Positions 27,946 through 61,400 of a DNA stretch of 64,000 nucleotides are shown piece by piece. Positions within the stretch are counted from its first letter, which is position 1. Each line of letters opens with the position of its first letter. Position numbers and translations under genes: made by a program. Source of the DNA: Convolutriloba macropyga (taxonomy: Eukaryota); the NCBI RefSeq assembly GCF_964194025.1, contig NC_134482.1:39990001-40054000 (forward strand). Direction: 5' to 3'. The notes below the pieces were generated by a model. That model searched no databases, was not told where the DNA came from, and saw only the letters and a program-made list of their open reading frames with translations.

Positions 27946-28630
27946 CCCCAGCTCTAGTGGGCATATAACTTTTATGCCCCCAAGGTGCACTTGCTATTTT
28001 ATGTAAAATTTGTGTTACTGGTCATATAAAGAAGAACCCTCACCACCTCTGATGACAAACTTGCCACAATGGGGGTGGCTATAAATCCGTGGAGGGAGGG
28101 GGTCTATAACCATAATTGCGTGGGGGGGGCTATGATGGGAAATACCCCAAAGGTTGTCCTGTGCTATGTAACAGCAAGCAATTTGTAATTTGCAGTTTTG
28201 AGCCATAAAAACACTAACGCAGTAGATCGCGAGGTTTTTTTTTGGGGGGGGGGCATAATAGATCCATGGCTTCCATGAATTGGTTGAAAAAATTTTAGAT
28301 TTGGTGAATGAGAGTCCAGGTGAAACCCGTCTGGCTCCACCCAGTGCTCCGGTGGTTCCAAAATCGACAAGTGGCGATGGAACAGCTGACAAACAACGAA
28401 CTACTGCTAGTTTGATAACTGCAGATGAAGGGAAATCAAATTTCACACTCAATTGGTGAAGATGAAAGCATATAATAACTGTTGTTATATAACAAAAAAA
28501 ATAGTTTTTTCCAATAATAGGAGAAAATATGGGTCTTTCCCGTAACAACCCTCCACGAAAATAGAGTACCCATTTTGGTATAATTACCATGATTGATTGG
28601 GGGCAAACATAATATGACCACTAAGCTGGG
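27946..28630. mobile_element. MITE-like element with CCCAGCT.AGTGG TIRs
   Basis: The left end CCCAGCTCTAGTGGGCATATAACTTTATGCCCCCA matches the reverse complement of the right end TGGGGGCAAACATAATATGACCACTAAGCTGGG. A related end lies at about 44650-44682. Confidence 0.6.
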
Positions 28631-45048: not shown

Positions 45049-48000
45049 CTGTTCAAGCAATTAACCCAACTGTAACCGTCATGACACAAAATTACCTGTG
45101 TTGGGATGAACAACATTTTCACCCTCAATTCAGGAGCGTCTTCAACAAATGCACCAACAATTGGGTCTTTCCCATCATATAACTTATTTTCTTGAGGGAT
45201 AGGGATTACAATGGGAAACACCTTCAATAAATTACCACGTGATTTGAACTAAAAAATCACAATTTCATCTATCGCGGATACTTCCCTTTTGAACTTGAGT
45301 TCTTCTTAAGCATAGACGATCCAAGTCTTAAAAGGGTTTAGAGCAGACATAAAACAAACCGGCCAACGTCGGATGAATTGCTCTCGAACCACAGGTGTGT
45401 GTGTGTGGGGGGGGGGGGGGGTACTTTAATTTAGAGGGTGCAGCTTAGAAACATTTTATGAGTGCAAGAAAATTCCCAGCCTATCAGGGGTCCGAACCCG
45501 CTCCCTCCAGAATGTCAGTCTGACATCTTAACCACTAAATCATAGCGTCTTTGATAATCCCTCGCACACCACCGCTTTTATTCTGTATTCTAGCAACAAT
45601 CTTTATTTTGGGATGAGAGCAACAGATTACGCAAAACCTTAAGATGTCAAACGTGAAAAAGTCACTTGAAAGCAAAGAATGTTCCAGAACAAAAACGATC
45701 AAGCAAAAATTGTGCATTAAAAAAGACAAACAATTACAACAATCGCTTCAAACTTGGTTCGAGAGCAATTAATCACACGCAACTGTTCCAGCTTAACATC
45801 CCGATAATGCAATTAATGAACAAAACCGACTAACGTCTGGCGAATTGCTCTAAAACGACCACCGAGCAGTTGGCTTCAGTAGTAGGCAGCTGGGGCTAGG
45901 TGGTGACCGGAGTGAGTGTGTGAAGAGGAGGGGAAGCGTTGGGGATCTTCAATTTTTTCAAGAAGACTAGAGGTTTCATGGGTATATCGACAGAGAAAAG
46001 GAACTTGTTTTGGTAAAACATGCGTAAGCGTAATGATGGAATGTTTTGACAAAATGGTTCAACTTCTGTATACTCTTTATATTTACATTGATAGTCATTC
46101 AGGTATTCAGCGCAGGCTGCAGGTGATCCAATAACCAAACCTAATACGCGTGTACTTTCTGTAATTTAAATTTCAGTGTCGTGAAAGAGCTCAAACGCTT
46201 CATCTTTCAGATGTAGTTTTGTAATAAGTTGACATTTAGGGGCATTCACGAGGCATCCAAACATGGATCCGCGTTTTTGAGACCACAAACATGTTAAGCA
46301 ATGACAAAAGAGATCTTACAGCATTGCCAACATCTGCATACCATTTACAATATAGAGGAAAGAGGCTAAATGATCCAGGTATTCAAGATCTTAACGTATA
46401 GGATTGATCCTAAAGCTAGCCCAAAAGCCTGGAATTATCAAAAGCAAGAAGTCACCGGAAGCTATACAGTTCGAAGTTTAAAATAAAAGAATAGAACAAC
46501 ATTGGATTACGGAAAAGTTCAAAACTCTCATTTGATGGGAAACACCTCTGTCGACCAACTCTTCATAGGTGTCATTATGAAGAGCTGGTCGAGAGAGGCT
46601 GAAGAACCATTTAACTTGAACTTGTAAAACCCATGCAGTTTCCACAAGGCTCACATACCTTCAAATCACACCTTCCGCAACGCTCTAATAAGTTTCAGCT
46701 CTGATCACTCTATTTTAAGTAATATCCACTCTTCACTAATATCAACTCAAAACCAATTCCAATAAAATCAGAATTTTGACTCAAGGCTTTGAACAAAATG
46801 CGGCCAGTGCGGAATTAAGACGAAAATACAGGCTCTAGATAAGACAAACAACAAAAGTTCAAAAAATCTCAAAACCACACAAAATATACGTGAATATTTC
46901 CCTTGGATAGCATTCAACGTTTTCGGCAAAATCTTAATAAAAAATAACATAGCCGGCAGATTGCCAGAAAATCGCCGCAATAGCTTCGTAGATCTGCAGT
47001 CTCAAAAAAGATTTAAAAAAGAGATGTTAAATTTTGATCAAGAATCTGTATAACTTATTGCTGTTTCTATTAACTGCTCTTAAATACCCTTCAATTAGAG
47101 TGATATACACTCACTTGACCTTATTATAAAAATAGGAGTTGTTCAAAATTTATGGTTCATTTAAGTAAAGATGAGTTTCTTCAAGTCTCTTAAAGTTATT
47201 GAAGCCACACAAAGACGCCAAATGCAAGGGTCTGATTCGTTGTATCGGGATATGAAGAATCGTTTGTAGAGTTCCAAGAGTTTGCTTTTGTGATCTGAAT
47301 CAAGAAGCACATCATATTTGAAACAATCATTGAACATATTTGCAAGGTGACGGGCTCGGTACCAAAAATCTGATCCACTCTTCTGCAACCGCATTTGCTC
47401 GCATATGAAATTTCTAGTGACTTGGACTCTCCGGGTGCACACCTCAGCGAAAGTAACATGGCTTTGCCAGTCAATATCAACTTTTCCAAATAAAATTTTT
47501 GCAAATAGTAACACAACATGAAGTTCTTGATATATAGACAGTGGCAAGATGTTGCTTTTCTGAAGTTTGTCCTTGCATGAGAAAACACTGTTGCTGGTTT
47601 TGGAGATCCAACACATTGCTTTTCGTTGAACACTTTCGAGTAATGATAAGTCGCCTTTGATGGTTTCCACAAGTATGAGCCATAGCTGACACTTGGCACA
47701 ACATAGCATACATAGGAATTTTTCCTTTGCAAAATTTGCCTTGCTAAGGTTTCGTTTCAGTAGGAAGAATGCATTCAAGGCTTTTTCGGTTCTTTTCTTC
47801 GCGTGTAAGGTCCAGTTTAAAGAGTCGCTCACAAGGAGGCCTAAATCTTTGATCGATTGGGTGGCTTCGAAGGTATAATTGGACCGAGCCTTTTATACAT
47901 TGCAGCTTGCTTTTCGTCAGGTTCATTGACATCAGATTATTCTCGCACAACCTCCAAAGTTTTCTGACATCTATGTTGAGCGTCACAGGATTGGTCCCTA

Positions 48001-51000
48001 CAATTTTGTAATCATCTGCATAGCCAAATTCCTTTGACATAACACATGACGTCAGATCGTTTATGAAAACAAGTAAGAAAAGCGATCCTAGGATGGAACC
48101 TTGGGGTACACCGCTAAAGACATCAAGTTCTTTTGAGGTTGTACCATTTATCCGCACTGTTTCTTTCCAATTCGACAGATAGCTTCGAAGCAGTTTCCTT
48201 CAATGCCGAGTACCGCTAGTTTGGCTAAAAGTAGATCGTGAGAGACATTGTCGAATGCCTTCTGGAACTCGATATAAAAGGCTGTGAGGTAGGAAAAGTT
48301 GGAGTCCAGGCAGCTGAAGATCTCATGCAATTACTCTATTAAATTTGTTGTGGTTGATCGCTTTGGCCGAAAGCCATGCTGTGCAGGATTTAGGGTTGAG
48401 TAGACTACTCGGATCAGTTTGTTGAAGATGAGCGTTTCAAAATTTCGAGCCTGCAGAAAAGAGACTGATTGGTCTATAGTTAGAGGCGTCCTGTTTGTCG
48501 CCATCTTTATAGATTGGGACGATTTCGGCTACTTTCCATTTCGCTGGGAAATGATCTTTGCGAGCAATTAAATTGAAGAGTAGACATAGCGATATTGGCA
48601 ATGACATTTGAATTTAAAATCTCGGTGGTGAAGATGACGTGGCTCAACTTAGCGACAACATTCTGTCTGTTTTGACTACGTAGCACATCTGTGTGAACAC
48701 TGACTGAAGTAGTCGTTTAACAAGTCGGCTTTGGCAACGTCAGTATTAGCTGATCGGTGATTTAAGATTTCTGCGGGCACGGAATTTGACTTAGTGACAG
48801 ACTTGAAATCACGTTGTATGTCAGTAAACTTGCCATCTTGGAAGAGTCGAGGTTCGTTCTCATGTTGATCGTGCGTAAGTGTTAGGGCAAGATTAGTTTG
48901 CACGTGCTCGATTTTGAGTTTTCTAGCAGGCGTTGATTTCCGTTGCTGCTTTAGTTGCAGGGTATTCAACGTTTTGATAAGGTTTGACAATCTATGACTA
49001 ACCCGGGGCGCGAGTTCAGATCTGTGTTTTGTGATAATAGACAAGAAATCTTGAGGACTTCATAAAGCCATTGGTACCAAAGGTCTAACATCAAGTCTAC
49101 GTTCATCATAATATAAGGACGAAAAGGATGTTGAACAGTGAACTTGTTTATGTCGTTCCAGTTAGCTTTCTTATATGCAAAGGCTACAAAATCGAACTTC
49201 TGCCTTGGTTTTAGCGGTTGTATATGTGATGGCTTGATATTAAAAAAGACCTAAGCGTGAAACGCATATGATCGCTTTTGAACATGCTTCGAAAATGATT
49301 GTCATGAACAATGCTTGAGACAGTTTGTTGCATGGGTTTGTTGAGGTTTATTTGCTGGGGTTTGTTGCATAAGAAGACGTCCAACAACTTTCCATCTTGA
49401 GATCGAATGAGTTGTTGACCGTTTAAGTCGCAGAGCTAGTTGAGTATCACCTGCTCGTCGGGCGAAGTCGAGGTTATAGAAGGCCAGTGGCTCCTGCTCA
49501 GATTTATATCGCCAGCAATGTACGAACAAACAGCGCCATGTTCATATTGCTTGGACCTCAGAAAAGCCAAAAGTTTTGCGAAGTCAGCAACTGACCATGT
49601 ATAATGACTGTTCCACGGCGCACTGTAGTGACAACAGATCATGACCGGTTTGCTCATCAGCAAACGGATAACACATTCTTTAAAACTTGAGACAGTTTCA
49701 CAACTTGGAATATTTTCAGCAACATCTATGACTGCAACCTCGTGTTTTGTAGCCCCATTTGCACTTAGTCGGTCTTTGTGGCGTACTGTGAAGTTGGTGA
49801 GGAAAGTTGCACTGTCTTTGACACTTTCAGTCAGCCACGGTTCTGTGAGGCAAATGATTTGGTAATGATTTGGTACTGTAATGGCATGATAATGATTTGG
49901 TACTGTAATGAAAAGGTGTTCGTCCATCGTATTCAAGTATAATTCTGGCAATGAGAATAAGAATGTACAAGAAGGTGGTTAGTGAAGAGGACCCATGGAC
50001 TTCGGGTGTCTTGTCCTTGAACCAACGTGTGCCGTGCCGGATGAACAAATTTCCGTCACGAACTCGAAAAATTTTTGGTTCTGTGCCATTGACCTCGACG
50101 TGAGCCATCATCTTTTGAACCTGTGCACGATCATGTTCCTGACGTAGCCTAGCTTCTTTTTCGTTTGATTCAGGGATTCCACGTATTCGTATGCCGTCAA
50201 TCTCTTCGACAGGTTTTGGTGGCGTTTCAGGTCTTGTAGTTGGTATAACAGCGCAGATTGCTTCTATTGGAGGGCTTGCTTGAATGATTTGATCTCGAAG
50301 ACAGCTTTTTTGAGGTCGGTCCTTTCACTTCGATAGCGAGTATTGTGTTTTGCCATCTTTCAGTGGCTCAGAGCAAGAGGATCAATGAGCGCGCCTTAAA
50401 AGATTGATAGTTTTTCAAATGAACAAGAACTAGTAGGGGTTCAGAGCCAGAGACTCGATAAGCAAGCATACCTGATCTAGAGTTTTCTTCGTTTGGCTTC
50501 TCGACGTTCACCAGCCGATCGTCGCTACGTACCACGTGTCTTGAAGATTCGCTTGATATCTGGGTAATAGTGTAGCACTCATGCCAAGCTTTGCAGTTCA
50601 ACGTCTGGGTGTTGATGGAGCTCTCGCTATTCTGCTAATACCGACTTGTCAGTTTGTCCAGAGGCACTAATAATGTGTTTTGTCACGTCGATTCGTATCA
50701 TTTCAGAGCCTTTCCGAGATAGTCAAAGATGAAAGGCGCTCCTTCGCTTTGGCAGGTGACAACACAAAAGAGTATGGGGATAGTCTTCAAAGTTTCGATC
50801 AGTTCGTCAACCGTTTGAGGGATGGTTTTCTTCCTGGGGTGTTAATTCAGAGTATTATTCTATTCAAGAGGTCGTGCCAAAGAATAATGTTCCGGTTCCT
50901 CAGTGGAGCTGACATAAGATAATAGTAACAATAATTTGAAGTCTTTGGGTCTAGATTAAGGCCAGGGTAAGAGTAAGCAATGCCAGAGAGTTTCGCTTGT

Positions 51001-53479: not shown

Positions 53480-54249
53480 TGCCTAAAATTAGCAAATCAA
53501 AAACAGGTTTCCACATACAAAAACCAGCACACACATTCGCATTAACGTGATGGTAATCCGACTCTTGTTCACGTTATAATCTATTAATGGTATATTATGC
53601 TCACATAAAGACCTTAAAAAAATCGTGATTTACTCTGGACAATAACAAAAAACGTCGTCTTTCTCTTTTAATAGTCCCGTCCCCAAATATGGTATAATTA
53701 CGATAATTAATATAAATGGAAAAAGGGGGGTATGATTCGCCCAATGCGTGGAAGTGAACCCCCACTATGAAAAATCAGAGCTGTTTATTAAAATTTATCG
53801 CATTGCATTTTTTAAAGTACAGTAATATGATAGGCTCTAGGAGTCGCGTCAAAAAAGTTGGAAATATCACTATATTGTTGTTGTGGATTTGCTGAACGCA
53901 GGGACATGATCCCAGTCATCAGATTTAAAAAATATTCAAATTGTTTCTGAACACTGTACAATCGCAACCCAATTGCCAAGTGCAGACACTGTTTTCTAAG
54001 AAATTTCTATGGAAAGCAATGTTGGTGTATTAAATGTAGAAGAATATTGAATTGAACGTCAGATCCCAAAGACAAATTTACAAATAGTATTTAAAATATC
54101 AATTATTTACAGTGTAGTTGTTTCATTCAATTTGTGCGTTTATAATACTTTTGAAGTGGTGACAGTTTTAAAAATGAGGCGGAATAAAGCATATGATCAT
54201 CTGATATTTTTTCGCAAAATCTGCAGACGCAAAAGCTTTCCTCCCACTT

Positions 54250-55068
54250 GTAATCAGCCTTCCATGTAACAGAAAGTTGTGCAGACAGTTTCCATAAAAT
54301 ATCGCAACCACTCTTTTGTGTTTGGGGGGGGGGGACAATCTTTCAGCCCATGATGGTCAAAGAACAAACTTTTGAAGACAATTTCTTGTAATTACTCACT
54401 CCGCATCAGCAATTCTTCCAACTTTGCGGTAGTGTTTCTTTATCTCTATCTCAAATAGAGCGTCGGTGCATTTTGAGGTCATAGGTTGCCCGCCGGAAAA
54501 ACGATTGAATTGAACAGAAGACTAGCAGAATTAAAGTTGGTTTTGCGCAATTTGAGTTTTTGATTCAGTTTGCCGTCTTTTACTAGTCGACCTCTTCTGA
54601 TTTTCATGGCTTTCGGTCTTTGCGATGTTAACTTTCAATTTGTTTCCAGAACAGTACAATTTGATTTTGTTTATACATTGTTGTAAATATGACTGCTGCC
54701 ACCGAGTACTAGATCGTCGGTATAGAAAATTACCTCTAATTCATCCCGTTTCAATTCGTAGCATCGATCAGCAATAAAAAGACCAAAAAGTAAAGGTGAT
54801 AGTTTCTCTCCTTGGGCACACCAGTTTCTTGCTTTATTTCATCTGATAGTGTTTCCCCATCTAATACATACTGCAGGTTGCACCTAAGCTCTGATTGCAA
54901 TGTTGTTAGGATGTACCTATGGAGTCCCATTTTAACAAGTTTTGATATCAACAGATTCCGACCAATAAAATCAAATCTCTTTTCGTAATCAATAATGCAA
55001 GCCAAGATTATTCCAGATTGTTTCACGTTCATTTTGATCACTTCAAGCATTATCGATTCTGCAAGCAT

Positions 55069-55070
<2 letters not shown>
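54250..55070 (-). mobile_element. Older decayed LINE, RT and 3' part (host of the nested insertion)
   Basis: ACIIDYEKRFD, TGVP(Q)GEKLSPLLF and FYTDDL motifs; the reading frame rejoins 59942 onwards across the TSD. Confidence 0.75.

Positions 55071-55152
<82 letters not shown>
55069..55152 (-). repeat. (CTA)28 microsatellite 3' tail of the young LINE
   Basis: Perfect (TAG)n on the plus strand, 39 nt after the ORF2 terminal TGA (55194-55192). Confidence 0.95.
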
Positions 55153-55191
55153 GAGAGTCTTTAGGGTCGGAGCCCTCGGGTGTGGAACCCT

Positions 55192-58077
55192 TCAGTTTTC
55201 GTTTGGCACGAGTTTTTTCATTGGATTGCAGATTCCACAGTTGCATAGAAGTCTCCAGGTGCAGCTGTCGAGTTCGTTGTAGCTTCTGTGGAAATAGTTT
55301 TGGTACATCTCTGTCAGAAGTTTCTTCGTCATTGGCTTCTCCGTTGTCCTACTGATGATGTTGAATAGCTTTGTGGCTCTGAAGAAAAAATTTTCGTCTG
55401 ATTTATGTAGTCGGTGTTTGGGGAGTTCAAATTCCTGCTTTTGTCTTGTTTCGTTTTCTTTTCGCTTTGGCAGTTTGTCTTCGGGGACGTAGTAATTGCC
55501 TTATAGGATTGAGAGGAGATAGAGGACATCGTGCATTTCCATGTACATGGAGAGTGGGAGTATTTTCAGCGTTTCGAGTCTTTGATGGTATTCGTCGTTT
55601 CCACCGCATATCCACTTTGTTGCCTTTTGCTGGATCTTCTCGATTGATTTCATGTCAGTCTTCGAAGGGTACCAGACTTGGGAGGCGTAAGTGAGTACGG
55701 GCACTACGTATCCTATGTAAGCGTTCAGTTTCGTTTCCATTGAGGTTCTGCTCGAAACATTTCGTTTGAGTGTGTAGAAGGCTTTCCACGCTTTGGTTGT
55801 TCTAAGTTGGCAGTTTGCGCTCCAAGAGAGATTTCGAGACATTACGACTCCGAGATCTTTTTGGGTGGCAACGGTTTCAAGACCTGCTTCGTCACGCTGG
55901 GCTAGATCCCCTCTGATGAGGAGGGTTTTACTTTTGCTAACATTTAGGTCCATATGGTTTGCTTTGCTCCATTTCTGTATTTCCCCGAGAGTGGTCTCGC
56001 ATTCGTGTTCACCGTGGGTAATTGCTTTGAAATCATCCGCGTATCCGAAGGCCGGGATGTCTGAGATTTCTTCGGGGAGATCGTCAATGTAGATGATGAA
56101 CATCAGAGGCCCCAAAATTGATCCCTGAGGTACTCCGCTGGTTACATTTCTGGTCTTTGATTTGCTTGTTCCAATTTTGACGCGTTGCGTTCGGTTTGTG
56201 AGATAGCTTTCGAGTAGTTGGAGTAGCTTTCCTCCGAGGCCAATGTTCTCGAGCTTCTGGATGAGTCTTTTGTGCGCTACTTTGTCAAAGGCTTTTCTGA
56301 AGTCAACATACAGAGTTCGAATGTCATTGCATTTTTTCGATTCAAGTTGCTGGTATAGTTCGTCTGTGAAGAGGATGAGTTGAAGTACTGCTGATCGTTT
56401 CTTTCTGAAACCGTGTTGGGAGTCAGAGAGGGTTCTTTCTATTGGTGGGTAAAGCCGTTCGAAAATGACTTTCTCGAAGACTTTTGAGACGTTCTTCAAT
56501 AGACTTATTGGTCGATACTGTGTGATGTCTGCTTTGTCGTTTTCTTTGTAGATCGGGGTGATCTCACTTGTTTTCCAGCTCTCTGGGAATTTTCCTTTAT
56601 TAAGGCAGGTTTGGAAGATAAGTTTGAGAGATTTTGCCAAAGCTGGGGCGTTTTTTAAGATTATATTTCCGATGTTGTCTGGGCCGCACGCTTTGTTTGC
56701 CTGGAGGCCCAACAGTTGTCTTTCGATTTCTTCTTCAGAAATTCTGAGGTAGTTGAGTCTCTGTTTTGGGTAGACTGAGGGTTCGTTGATTTTAACATCT
56801 TTGGTGAAAACGTCGGAGAAGAAGTCGTTGAAGAGATTGCACTTTTCACTATCGGTTGTGGCTGTTTTCTTTGTTTCTTGTCCATTTTGCACAACATTGT
56901 AGTACATTTCATCAGGGAAGTGTTTTGATTTGCGTAGGGATTTCAGGTATTTCTGTAGATCAGACATTCGGCGGCTTTTGAAGAGTTTGTCTTCGTAGAC
57001 TGCCTGATCTGTCAGGATTTGCTCATTGAGGAGTTTTTCGCGTCGTTTTATCTTTATCAGGAGGTTGAGGGTCGGTGCTCTCTCGTATTTTCTTTTCATC
57101 GTTCCGAGGATCTTGAGTTCGTGTGATGTGGCAGAGGAAATCCATGGGGGAAGGTTTGCTCGGTGCTGGGTGACACGGGGGATTAGTATCTCAATTATCT
57201 TTTCGATCCATAGGTACCATTGGTCAACAAGTTCATCGACGTTGCTGAAGCAGTAGGGTGAAAAGGGATGGTCTCTGATGTGGCTGTTAAATTCTTTCCA
57301 GTCCACCTTGTGATATGCATGTTTCACTTTGGGGGCTGGTTTCGTAGTTGATATGTCGATGGAAATGGTTGTCCGGAATGCTTGATGGTCGGAGCATCTC
57401 TTTCCGTTGATTGAGTATTCCCGTGTTAGGTTTTTGTCGACTTCGGCAAGTTCAATGCTGTCAGGAGATTGGGTGAGGCATACATCCAGTGATTGATTTC
57501 GTTTGCAAGGCAGAATTTGCTGAAGTTGGTGGGTTTCAAAGTTGTTGAGAAGCGAAAGTTCGTAGTCATCATCTGAGAGCATGCTGTTCCAATCAGCTCC
57601 AGGGAGGTTGAGATCGCCGCTGACAATTAAGGTGTAACTATCCCGTTGTTTCATCTGTTTTTCGATTTCTTCCAGGGTTTCGTGGATTTGACTGGCTGGT
57701 GCCCTGTAAGGGCAAGATTTAGGAGGGTTGTACATGCAGCAAATTACAAGTGATTCAGTTGGAGTTTGTAACGCAATCGATACACTTTCCGAGTGCGTTG
57801 TGTTTTTCAGTCTGTAGTGAGGAATGTCTTTCACCGCAATGAGAACTCCTCCGTGTTTTGAGTTATGGTTTTCAGTAGGTCGGTCAGTTCTGTGGATTGT
57901 GTATCCAGTAAGGAAGAGTGCATTGTCAAGTACATCGCTTGTTAACCAGGTTTCCGTGAGACAGAGTACATCGTAGTTCCTCTTTGCTATTTCATTGGCA
58001 AGGATTTGTCGCCTTTGGAAGTCAAGCAGACTTCGCACATTGAAACTGAGTATTTGGAGTTTGTTTTTATTTTGTAG
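55192..58077 (-). CDS. LINE ORF2: AP endonuclease + reverse transcriptase, no initiator AUG; one premature TAA at 55503-55501
   Basis: ILSFNVRSL, LCLTETWL, SGDLNLP, SDH, YRPISLL, QHGFR, DFRKAFD, GVPQGSILGP, YADD. The same frame continues after the TAA to ...SCTWRLLCNCGIC...EN*. Confidence 0.95.
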
Positions 58078-58919
58078 TCAATTTTGTTCCGGAGGTGAGC
58101 TGCTGCCAGTAGGAGTGACATCAACGTCAATCCATTTCTTGTTTTCTTTTTTCTGCAGTTTCAGATTGCGAATTCGCAAGTCTTTTAGGGCTATTTTCTC
58201 GACATCTATGAGGTATCTGCGCTTGATCAACAGAGCATTTTCAAGCTTTTTCTCGTCCGGACTGAGTTCTCGGCTCGCGAAAATTGGTTTATCGTAGGTT
58301 GCAAGTTTGTGGGCGGACAGCAGGACAAGTCGCCGATGATGTTCACTGGAGAATTTTGCAATTATAGTTCTCGTTTTCTCATTTTCGTAGGTTCCAACGC
58401 GTTTTACATCATCCATTGGGCAGTCGATATCCATGTGGGCGAGGATTTCCTTTACTTTCAGAACATCTTCATCATAACGCTCTCTGGCGGTTTTTCCGTA
58501 GGATTCGGGAATCCCTCGGAAGCGTACCCCATCGAATGTATGATCGGCTGTGCTGGTTGACGCACGGCTGGTTTTGTCGGCTCGGGCGGAGGGGACTTGA
58601 TTTCCGCTCGGATTTTGGATATCTCAGATTTGACTTCATCGAAGCTCTTTGCTATTTCCGCCACGTCCGGGGATTCTCTGCTGGATGCCAAGTTGTCTAG
58701 AACTCGGTCTCGTTGGTTGTTCTGCACACAGTCGTTACATATGAGCAAAACATTTTGTCGGATTTCCTGTAGTCCATATATGGCTTTTTCACTCATTCCA
58801 CTGCATTTCGGGGTCAGGTGCATGGAGTCGCCACACGAGACACAGTTGAACACTGCACTTTTGTTACTGATGGGGAGGGAGCACGTTTTGCAGGTGCTTT
58901 CAGGTTTTGATCGAGTCAT
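58078..58919 (-). CDS. LINE ORF1: PHD finger, coiled coil and RRM-like domain; one frameshift near 58545
   Basis: CKTC...CVSC...H...C...CNDC PHD pattern from ATG 58919. The -1 frame continues FDGVRFRGIPES...RVG...RTIIAKF...IFASRELS to TGA 58080-58078. Confidence 0.88.
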
Positions 58920-58930
58920 CTCGGTTGCTT

Positions 58931-59240
58931 TATAAACCAGTCGCAATTCCGAGGTAACAATTGAAACCTCCGGATTCACTGACGGGTTTATACCTCAACC
59001 GAGGGGGTGACTTTCCAACACAGATCCGCGATCCCAAAGCAAGCTAATTGCTCCTGGATTCACAGGATTTGATAGGAAACTACGAGGAAATTACACAATT
59101 CCGCGATCCTAAGACAATAAATGTCTCCGGGTTCACAGGAAATGTGATTTAGGGGAACGTAAGTACTATTACTGAGGTTTCCTTACTAATTTCTGATTGC
59201 GATCCTGAGATAACAAGACCTCCAGGTTCACTAACCAGAA
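58931..59240 (-). ncRNA. Cis-acting structured RNA: array of four hairpins with the same predicted fold in the ORF0-ORF1 spacer
   Basis: Hairpins at 59240-59191, 59146-59094, 59071-59021 and 58992-58931, each with lower stem, 1-nt bulge, GUGA/UYGC, A.A mismatch, 3-4 bp, G bulge, upper stem and loop. Stem sequences differ but pairing is kept. Confidence 0.8.
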
Positions 59241-59284
59241 AAAAGAAAAGAAAAAATCAGAAAAAAAACAGTGACTTACTCTGT

Positions 59285-59923
59285 TTACTCATGCTGTTCT
59301 GCTTTCTTGCTTTCCCGCTTCTTCTTTCTGTCCTTTTGGCGTTTGTTCGGTTTCTTCTTTGCCGGCTTCTTCGATCGCTTCTTCTTGATCAGCTTTCGAA
59401 GATTTCGACAGTTTAAGAGAATAGTGGTGACCAACTTGAGATCGATGTGGGTTTCGGGGTGTACCTGGGTTAACTGGTAAAGATATTCAAAATTTGCCTG
59501 TTTTCTTCTTGAGCTCAGGTTTTTGGTAGCTTCTAGAATGAGGATGCCGGTTTGTCGGAGGTCGATGGATAAGTCAGGGGTACCAGCTCGGCGGGTGTAG
59601 ACTATGGCCTCAATCTGCCCGTTTGAGTTGAGCTTCTTGAGGATTTCGATCAGTTGCTCGGGGGAGAGGGGTCGATTGTTGTTACTTCTGTGGGGGGTGA
59701 TGCTATTGTTGATCACGTCGTGCCAGATGACTATTCGTTTTCGATTTAGGAGCACAAATTTGTTTTGAAACAGGTGTTGCACTGTCTTGTACTTGTCCTT
59801 CGCTCTGGTGTTGAGAGAGAGGCCAGGCTTCGAGTAGGAAAGTTGTTGAAATCTGCGTTTGTCCTTGTGATCCAAAGTTCTTGTCAGATTGGCGAGACAG
59901 CTAGCTCCAACCAGGTAAACCAT
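59285..59923 (-). CDS. ORF0: 212-aa accessory protein, SGNH/GDSL esterase-like pattern plus a K/R-rich C-terminal tail
   Basis: Intact ORF inside the TSD-bounded element. VYLVGASCL, SKPGL, VIWHDVINNS and QVHP fall in the order of SGNH blocks I, II, III and V. Two diverged homologues lie elsewhere in the window. Confidence 0.8.
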   Translation of the reverse strand: MVYLVGASCLANLTRTLDHKDKRRFQQLSYSKPGLSLNTRAKDKYKTVQHLFQNKFVLLNRKRIVIWHDVINNSITPHRSNNNRPLSPEQLIEILKKLNSNGQIEAIVYTRRAGTPDLSIDLRQTGILILEATKNLSSRRKQANFEYLYQLTQVHPETHIDLKLVTTILLNCRNLRKLIKKKRSKKPAKKKPNKRQKDRKKKRESKKAEQHE

Positions 59924-59934
59924 GGTTTTCAATT

Positions 59935-60810
59935 AGCATTAATCCCATCTGAAACTATTTAATAAGAGAAGACGCACCGCAAAGTACATTGGCTTGACGG
60001 TAGTTTTCCAATTTTTCTCTTTTCTTAACCACTGCTTTCAGCAGAAACGGCTGCTGGTTCATAGATGGCTTTTGAGAAATGTGAAAACTAATTGTTGATT
60101 TCACTAGGTGTTGTAGTTTTTGCGCTTCTTCTACCACTTTTGACAGCTTACCGCTTTCTGTTTTGCGTACTTGCTTTCGTGTACTTTCTACTGTTTCCAG
60201 TTTGCATTTTAGGTCAACACTGTATACTACCTTCTGTGTTTCTTTGAGAACGTTCCCTGTATTTTTATTCCTGTCACTTGACTCACACCTCTGTCGCTAA
60301 CGAGGATTGAGTTGTTTCTTTTCGTTTAAGCTTAGTTTTGTCCCAGTTTTTCAGGAACTTACAAAGAGAATCACTGCGATTCGTGGTATCGATTCTACAA
60401 GTGAAGTCACCACCGAGTACTTTTTGTCTACTGCCAGGGCAATGCTGCATAACTTCAGATAGTTCCTGGTGAATTAATTGCAAATCCGTTTTCAATGCAA
60501 GATAGCCGACAATAACTATGAGGTTAATCTCATCTATCGCTACGGCCTTCTATCTATCATTCTGTGAAAAATTTGCAGGCGGTTTTTAAATGCTCACTGA
60601 TAGCTACTGATATACCATTTTCTTGTCTGCCTCGGCTTTTATTTTGGTAATATAATTACACGATAAAATTCTCTATTTGTGGTGTTTTCGTAACGAATAT
60701 TTCGGTCAGAGGAAGAAAGTAGTGTATTAGAGCCTCATTCAAGCATGATTCCAAAAGAGTTCCTGCTCCTGCGACCTCCCAAAGACATACGGTTAATCAT
60801 GCTACCTGTT
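59935..60810 (-). mobile_element. Older decayed LINE, APE to RT N-terminal part (host of the nested insertion)
   Basis: LTVCLWEVAG...LTEIF, VLGGDFTCRID and KLENYR motifs; continues into 55063 when the insertion is removed. Confidence 0.7.
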
Positions 60811-61019
60811 TTCTTTTCGTTAAGAACGTGTTTTTTTTCTTATTGGTGTGAATTGACTCAAACTTTTGCTGCTTTTGACGATTAGGTCGATTAATTTTTT
60901 ACCGTTTTTAGATTCGTACGTTGGTTCGTTGATTTCGTTTGTGCCCAATTTTGCGTCCCAGTTATTCACGAACCAAAGAGAGAATCAACACAATTGAAAT
61001 CAACTCGAAGTATACTGCT

Positions 61020-61400
61020 CTTCTTCCATGTCTTTTCTGCATAACTTCGGTAACTTCCTGGTAAATGAATTCCAAATCCATAGTCGATGCAAAATAGGCT
61101 TAGTTAATTGTGAGATTACGTTGTTCTAGCGCTACGTTTATGTAATTATCGTTCTGTGGGAAAACTTTGCAGCAGTTTTCAGGTATTTACATAGTCCAAT
61201 TTATGTACCACTTTGTGGTCTGCATCTGCTGCTGTTTTATTAATGTACTTAAACAGATAAAAATCTGTATTTTCAGTATTTTGGGTACTGAACTTTTCTG
61301 TCAGAAGAAGAAATTATTGTGTTAGAGTTTCATTCAAGCATGAATCCAGTTCCTTTGGCGTTTCCTTTGGTGTTTAAAAAGCATTTGATTGTTCATGGGG
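61020..61400 (-). mobile_element. Second diverged copy of the host-LINE APE N-terminal segment
   Basis: Colinear similarity to about 60440-60760 (GCATAACTTC..TTCCTGGT, CATTCAAGCATGA). Confidence 0.6.

Follow-up and report, generated by a model that had tools for sequence, protein, structure and literature searches.

A conserved in-frame UGA-CUA junction suggests stop-codon readthrough into ORF2 of LINEs in the acoel Convolutriloba macropyga

Introduction

UGA is the sole stop codon of Paramecium. For the Group 3 non-long-terminal-repeat (non-LTR) elements of Paramecium tetraurelia, which are long interspersed nuclear elements (LINEs) with an apurinic/apyrimidinic endonuclease (APE) and a reverse transcriptase (RT), readthrough has been proposed from consensus sequences, with 12 elements given as 'in-frame stop' (Guerin et al. 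2017, PMC5405496; this and all other publications are cited for those parts of their text that were available to us). Their first and second open reading frames (ORF1 and ORF2) lie in frame across one stop codon, and the text examined holds neither a conserved stop context nor a readthrough test (PMC5405496). Here we analyse a 64,000-nucleotide stretch of the genome of the acoel Convolutriloba macropyga (contig NC_134482.1, positions 39,990,001 to 40,054,000; hereafter the window), which carries on its minus strand, from 59966 to 55070, a 4.9-kb CR1-like LINE nested in an older LINE. The LINEs of this animal share with Group 3 the APE, the RT and the in-frame arrangement of ORF1 and ORF2. However, Group 3 is a ciliate-specific clade, and the three of its 12 junctions that were inspected by eye read TGA-TTC, TGA-GTG and TGA-GTG, none of them being the TGA-CTA of the acoel elements.

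In alphaviruses, UGACUA sits ahead of the polymerase protein. The same hexamer is found in type II viral readthrough (Sindbis, ONNV, PSIV) and in cellular UGACUAG genes (PMC13517186); unlike the viral cases, the acoel LINEs are host-encoded, have no conserved 3' stem-loop and leave position +7 free. Fission-yeast Ty3/gypsy elements (Tj1, Tcry1 and Tosmo1-3) carry an in-frame TGA followed by CT(A/G) that is taken as programmed readthrough, and the stop of Tj1 was reported to be essential (bioRxiv 10.1101/2022.12.06.519325). Like the acoel LINEs, these have TGA-CT in frame between structural and enzyme genes, but they are LTR elements whose Gag-Pol includes a protease, and a GAA is conserved before their stop, whereas no upstream base is conserved in the acoel LINEs.

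How ORF2 of a LINE is translated from a multi-ORF RNA has been described as unclear (PMC3708506). SART1 (UAAUG), mammalian L1 and the 2A-bearing CR1, L2, Crack and Ingi elements face the same problem of making little ORF2 protein (ORF2p) from such an RNA (PMC5972666, PMC5009743, PMC3708506), but they yield separate proteins through reinitiation or StopGo, whereas a fused product is predicted for the acoel LINEs. In their parts, the latter resemble CR1/L2 elements (a putative PHD-like finger in ORF1, a putative SGNH-like esterase, APE and RT, and a microsatellite tail; PMC4120745, PMC3905857), except that the esterase-like domain has its own upstream ORF0 instead of lying within ORF1. The main text of the 448-element survey lacks the terms 'stop codon' and 'in frame' (PMC4120745, PMC3905857), and the examined text of reviews on recoding and reinitiation (PMC5972666, PMC5009743) describes no LINE readthrough. 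We found no case of LINE readthrough in animals in the open-access literature, Repbase Reports and most subscription journals, which might mention such a junction, excluded; within the literature found, it appears to have been proposed only in a ciliate.

Results

An earlier note on the window had placed ORF1 and ORF2 in frame across one UGA, and the minus strand from 58092 to 58036 reads exactly as quoted there. Junctions of related elements were collected through an endonuclease-side genome search, in which 150 matches of 3590 candidates were scored and, of the 126 matches outside the family of the window LINE (family A), 117 were fetched and nine apparent copies of one young family skipped. 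An ORF1-side search added 40 of about 58 new places, and further searches used a generic Pfam endonuclease (top 30) and queries drawn from the two decayed elements of the window and from two distant lineages. Families are clusters at 80% nucleotide identity, each represented by copies with the majority junction.

All 31 host-genome families with a readable junction carry an in-frame TGA-C, reading TGACTA in 27 cases, TGACTC in three and TGACAA in one; they comprise 24 families of the main lineage, four L2-like and three RTE-group-like ones. Among 231 junction-spanning copies, 172 have TGACTA and 20 TGACTC, and TGA is kept in 222; the other 39 differ for the most part by single, scattered changes, and some double counting of places is possible. 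TGACTA was found at 15 of the 21 junctions of family B and at 20 of 24 in family H, and ascertainment from the ORF1 side led to the same junction result. As the earlier note had anticipated, frame and TGACTA are kept in all 21 junction-spanning copies of family A. Because these copies are 86-100% identical, they inform only on the master element, and their uniformity can show only that it carried the hexamer. More telling are the divergent families, which give the same tally although their flanking codons are not conserved. Five metagenome contigs were also found, one of them starting within the endonuclease, and the three that span the junction all read TGACTA. These three come from one metagenome, L335 having no host-genome match and L338 being 84% identical to a host-genome family, and stand for one further, probably related genome. 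A scan of IMG/VR for such a junction returned none among 51 candidates, and no annotated protein of 525-2000 aa that fuses ORF1 to ORF2 turned up in our search, which is weak evidence.

Over 31 representative junctions (28 from the host genome and three from the metagenome; positions -12 to +21), information content is 2.0 bits at +1 to +4, 1.79 at +5 and 1.65 at +6, and at most 0.47 elsewhere, with base +7 being free (9 A, 9 C, 7 G, 6 T). The stop is followed by the first conserved Asn at 13 different spacings of 7-20 codons, the frame always being kept, and the endonucleases of the 12 families compared are only 11-48% identical. CTA accounts for 28 of the 30 Leu codons directly after the junction stop, whereas in 12 ORF2s its share is 2.0% of all codons and 17.5% of those for Leu; since selection for leucine alone would not yield such a number, it is the codon, and not the residue, that counts, in line with selection on the RNA. 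As an internal control, 24 ends of ORF0 and ORF2 consist of 13 TAA, 7 TGA and 4 TAG, with TGAC in none of the 24. Judged from these comparisons, the hexamer is a real, strongly selected recoding-type signal, common to whole LINE lineages of an animal.

The earlier note had further held that ORF2 lacks an AUG, the first one in frame coming about 100 codons into the endonuclease, past essential motifs. In family A this AUG lies at codon 115 (57735), and a start there would indeed drop two endonuclease motifs, as it would lose N13 and E42, which correspond in the alignment to the L1 endonuclease motifs TLN and QET and are presumably catalytic. For 27 of the 31 junctions the statement is accurate, as no AUG precedes the first endonuclease strand, while in the other four an in-frame AUG does. 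RefSeq annotates ORF2 of family A as host genes (P0001, P0121-P0124), mostly of 847 aa from codon 115, which constitutes a practical error: these models begin at the first Met and lose half the endonuclease.

The features of the window LINE are listed in Table 1. Its top protein match is a Convolutriloba macropyga RefSeq model (99%), and its assignment to the APE-type non-LTR class follows from Pfam matches above the cut-off (PF03372/PF14529 and PF00078), a match of the endonuclease profile to the L1 endonuclease in PDB (E 1e-6), 24 dispersed matches and the simple-repeat tail. Along the element, contig depth drops about 20-fold from 3' to 5', which fits 5' truncation. Intact copies of family A have three ORFs, and the whole in-frame ORF1-TGA-ORF2 layout is kept in intact copies L002-L007 and L009 (309 codons from stop to stop) as well as in L203 and L204 (ORF2 of 961 codons). 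The single-frame arrangement therefore holds for intact copies, but not for the window copy: while 858 codons with Pfam EEP and RVT_1 domains stay open after its junction stop, a 13-nt deletion after 58540 sets the AUG of ORF1 out of frame with the junction, and a premature TAA interrupts ORF2 at 55503-55501. Both changes are private, occurring neither in other copies nor in aligned contigs. The four aligned contig sets, whose kind is not recorded, behave like DNA and, among the entries listed, show neither a variant nor a joint at the junction; they were taken as evidence neither for nor against expression. The window copy is dead and, as its ORF1 is frameshifted, cannot make an ORF1-ORF2 fusion itself.

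Table 1. Features of the window LINE and of two related decayed junctions (window positions).
Feature	Position	Strand	Remarks
5' terminus: final 12 nt of the spliced leader of the host	59955..59966	-	Boundary at 59966 from alignment with L204; 12-mer is the 3' part of the acoel spliced leader (PMC9911081)
ORF0, predicted SGNH/GDSL esterase-like protein with basic tail	59285..59923	-	AUG at 59923, TAA at 59287-59285
Spacer between ORF0 and ORF1	58920..59284	-	Starts GTAAGT, then pyrimidine tract and AG
ORF1: PHD-like Cys/His finger and conserved C-terminal part	58081..58919	-	283 aa from AUG (58919) in intact copies
TGA CTA junction: stop of ORF1 and codon 1 of ORF2; predicted readthrough signal	58075..58080	-	TGA at 58080-58078, CTA at 58077-58075
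ORF2: APE endonuclease and reverse transcriptase	55192..58077	-	In intact copies 961 codons long; ends in the family at TGA-AGG (55194-55192)
3' untranslated region (UTR) of about 40 nt, then (TAC)n tail	55070..55191	-	
Junction of family B copy, decayed to TCA CTA	49980..49985	-	Intact family B copies have TGA CTA
Junction of old host LINE, decayed to TGA TTA	60794..60799	-	Intact relative, family H, has TGA CTA before LTICLWNVEG

The two further junctions named in the earlier note, TCACTA and TGATTA, are present at the positions given in Table 1, and turn out to be a decayed family B copy and a decayed relative of family H, respectively. The family B copy (47100-50800, minus strand) has an internal ORF1 deletion of about 220 nt compared to intact copies. 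The old decayed LINE that hosts the young element occupies 54000-55070 and 59967-61300 on the minus strand, with a local duplication near 61147-61348.

In quick RT trees the motif occurs in three lineages with motif-less lineages between them; the clade names CR1 (family A), L2-like (D) and RTE-group-like (H, J, S) are our own tentative assignments from characteristic motifs, not from named references. The last of them also rests on the grouping of H, J and S, with SH-aLRT 92-94 and a long branch, with an RTE-like element of one ORF. One row, c9_L303, had captured the RT of an adjacent element and was disregarded, and c13 was left out because its coverage was low. The motif is absent in lineages M, N, Q, K/P and RTE. 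Among the motif-less lineages, M, N and Q have junctions that are out of frame or read TAG; others consist of 2A-like elements with one ORF, or of an RTE-like element with its own AUG. Exchange of ORF1 between CR1 and L2 lineages has been reported (PMC4120745), and such exchange could also have spread the junction. In lineage N (L072, L075, L076, L080, L325), ORF1 and ORF2 share one frame on either side of TAG-TCT, and the 69 codons read after the stop contain no Met, possibly a second, different readthrough or reinitiation junction. The single-ORF LINEs L059/L322, L327 and L328 of the host genome carry the 2A-like motifs GDVEKNPGP and GDIETNPGP ahead of a PHD-like finger, the APE and the RT.

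Many full-length LINE copies open with the acoel spliced leader, whose 31 nt equal nucleotides 1-31 of the leader published for S. roscoffensis (PMC9911081); 19 distinct contexts match it over all 31 nt with at most one mismatch. Its 12-mer occurs in 39 distinct exact contexts in 401 loci, against 0.8 expected. Leader-starting copies include the window LINE, L062, L064, L068, L080, L082, L275, L307, L343-L366 and others, the leader lying ahead of ORF0 or ORF1 whether or not the lineage has the motif. More speculatively, the genomic leader copy, which ends in TAG, might itself act as acceptor when trans-splicing occurs again. L091 and L166 have internal deletions, which were considered as traces of spliced copies and rejected for want of GT-AG ends.

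ORF0 of family A has no Pfam match; a homologue in family c0 matches Lipase_GDSL_2 below the cut-off (E 7.7e-6), and the Atlas feature score to the GDSL cluster is 0.92. An upstream ORF0 is also found in L295, L298, L300, L301, L304, L308, L311, L315, L317, L324 and L335, in two subtypes that do not track the RT tree, and makes these three-ORF LINEs. ORF1 has a conserved Cys/His pattern, with PHD matches in Pfam only in sister families and below the cut-off. In the window, GTAAGT directly follows the ORF0 stop, ahead of a pyrimidine tract and AG (59230-59284, minus strand), and a donor-like GT(A/T)AG or GTAA lies within about 10 nt of this stop in families B, c2, c7, E1 and F as well. The ORF0-ORF1 spacers of L298, L300, L317 and L335 (860-1170) contain tandem repeats of 40-120 nt, and the spacer repeat of c2 holds a leader-like 13-mer. 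Elsewhere in the window, open frames of 201 and 174 codons (28015-28620 and 434-958, both minus strand) have no Pfam match at E 0.01.

Discussion

We consider it very probable that ORF2 of these LINEs is made through programmed UGA readthrough, directed by context only, as a fusion of ORF1p and ORF2p, and the conservation of the junction supports this route, which the earlier note had proposed. Most ribosomes would stop at the UGA and release ORF1p, while a few percent would insert an amino acid there (Trp, Cys or Arg by precedent) and go on into ORF2; a single leaky stop would in this way set a high ratio of ORF1p to ORF2p. The fusion would keep the enzyme attached to the particle formed by ORF1p, in the fashion of Gag-Pol, the variable polar tail of ORF1 and the spacer of 7-20 codons serving as a flexible linker. 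Polar or flexible residues make up 70% of the last ten positions of ORF1, compared with 47% of the endonuclease core, which matches what would be expected of a linker. Since no conserved downstream structure was found, the signal would consist of context only, and the type II hexamer UGACUA, which Sindbis-type viruses share with mammalian readthrough genes, is reported to have basal activity, with structure needed only conditionally (PMC13517186).

We must however take into account several points that weigh against readthrough. Seven families rest on one or two copies, four degenerate singletons (L169, L287, L374, L395) allow no junction call, and in the degenerate metagenome contig L339, which starts in this region, the 24 codons leading up to the Asn include no stop. 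Moreover, the p-values for enrichment are too small, as related families were treated as independent. Stem-loop stability, tested in 100-nt windows (+4 to +103), yielded a mean z of -0.28 over the 31 junctions (p 0.145), with family A alone reaching z -1.8 and -2.1. Maximum-likelihood trees need three changes, but the approximately unbiased (AU) test does not reject one motif clade (p 0.0596; 15 versus 7 rows, quick tree), and because it leaves a single clade possible, an independent origin by convergence is not claimed. The remaining points of this kind concern where ORF2 could start. At four junctions (c1, c2, c3, c10) an AUG follows in frame, 5-12 codons past the stop, and 13 of the 31 have an AUG or a strong near-cognate codon (CUG, GUG, UUG, ACG) in frame before the first strand. 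In caliciviruses, reinitiation is reported to tolerate loss of the AUG (PMC5972666), and for mammalian L1 an AUG-independent initiation is considered likely (PMC5009743).

The serious rival is termination-reinitiation, in which ribosomes would stop at the UGA and restart at the CUA or a near-cognate codon close by, giving free ORF2p as in L1 and SART1. It accounts for the adjacency and the frame of the two ORFs, it would be possible at those junctions where AUG or near-cognate codons lie, and calicivirus reinitiation accepts non-cognate codons as long as stop and start are close (PMC5972666). Nevertheless, we regard it as unlikely, since it gives no reason for UGA-C in 31 of 31 families while TAA or TAG end 17 of the 24 other ORFs. 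The four AUG-bearing junctions keep TGA-CTA regardless, and three of their Met are located where the first hydrophobic strand begins or next to that point. In addition, the UGGGA core of a termination upstream ribosomal binding site is found upstream of two of the 31 junctions versus three of 31 control windows, there is no SART1-like structure downstream, and CUA is two changes away from AUG.

A role in splicing is far less probable. TGAC fits the URAY branch consensus, and might thus act as a branch point or as part of a cis- or trans-splice acceptor that yields an ORF2-only mRNA. These LINEs carry the leader, and acoels do trans-splice (PMC9911081). Yet in 16 of the 31 junctions, including that of family A, a YAG is missing between the stop and strand 1, and the YAGs of the remaining junctions are spread over all three frames. 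The 31-nt leader itself has no AUG and lies at least 975 nt upstream of the endonuclease start in the 26 leader matches for which that start was located, and a branch point need not coincide with the in-frame stop of ORF1.

We give equally little credence to UGA being a sense codon, through selenocysteine or a change of the host code, which would turn ORF1-ORF2 into one ordinary ORF and would explain why the junction stop is always UGA. UGA terminates seven of the 24 other ORFs of these elements, intact ORF2s of 889-963 codons contain no internal TGA, and the host eRF1 keeps GTSMISL, TASNIKS, YLCDNKF and GGQ. No selenocysteine insertion sequence was present among 16 Rfam matches (E up to 1) in eight whole or near-whole element loci, and the 3' UTR of family A is short; the bias for C and CTA would also stay unexplained. 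That the hexamer is merely a functionless inherited relic is hardly credible, for even though the AU test (p 0.06) does not reject one origin for the lineages that bear the motif, neighbouring bases and spacer lengths are unconserved, the proteins are 11-48% identical, and old copies do lose the hexamer once inserted, 39 of the 231 having neither TGACTA nor TGACTC.

Readthrough as the source of ORF2p may also be taken further, to a picture that we put forward tentatively and consider somewhat doubtful as a whole. UGA-CUA readthrough could be a main, unrecognised ORF2 route in animal LINEs, which the CR1-like, L2-like and RTE-group-like lineages would have reached independently, or by trading an ORF1-junction module. 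The RT would then work only as the ORF1p-ORF2p fusion, a true analogue of Gag-Pol that lacks a protease, and would be translated from an RNA capped by the spliced leader and perhaps devoid of a promoter.

The mechanisms worked out in the review text examined are those of SART1, L1 and the 2A elements, next to which readthrough would be a fourth route, in an animal. The junctions provide 31 natural replicates of a six-base signal. If it is made, a fused ORF1p-ORF2p would explain both cis-assembly and stoichiometry in these lineages.

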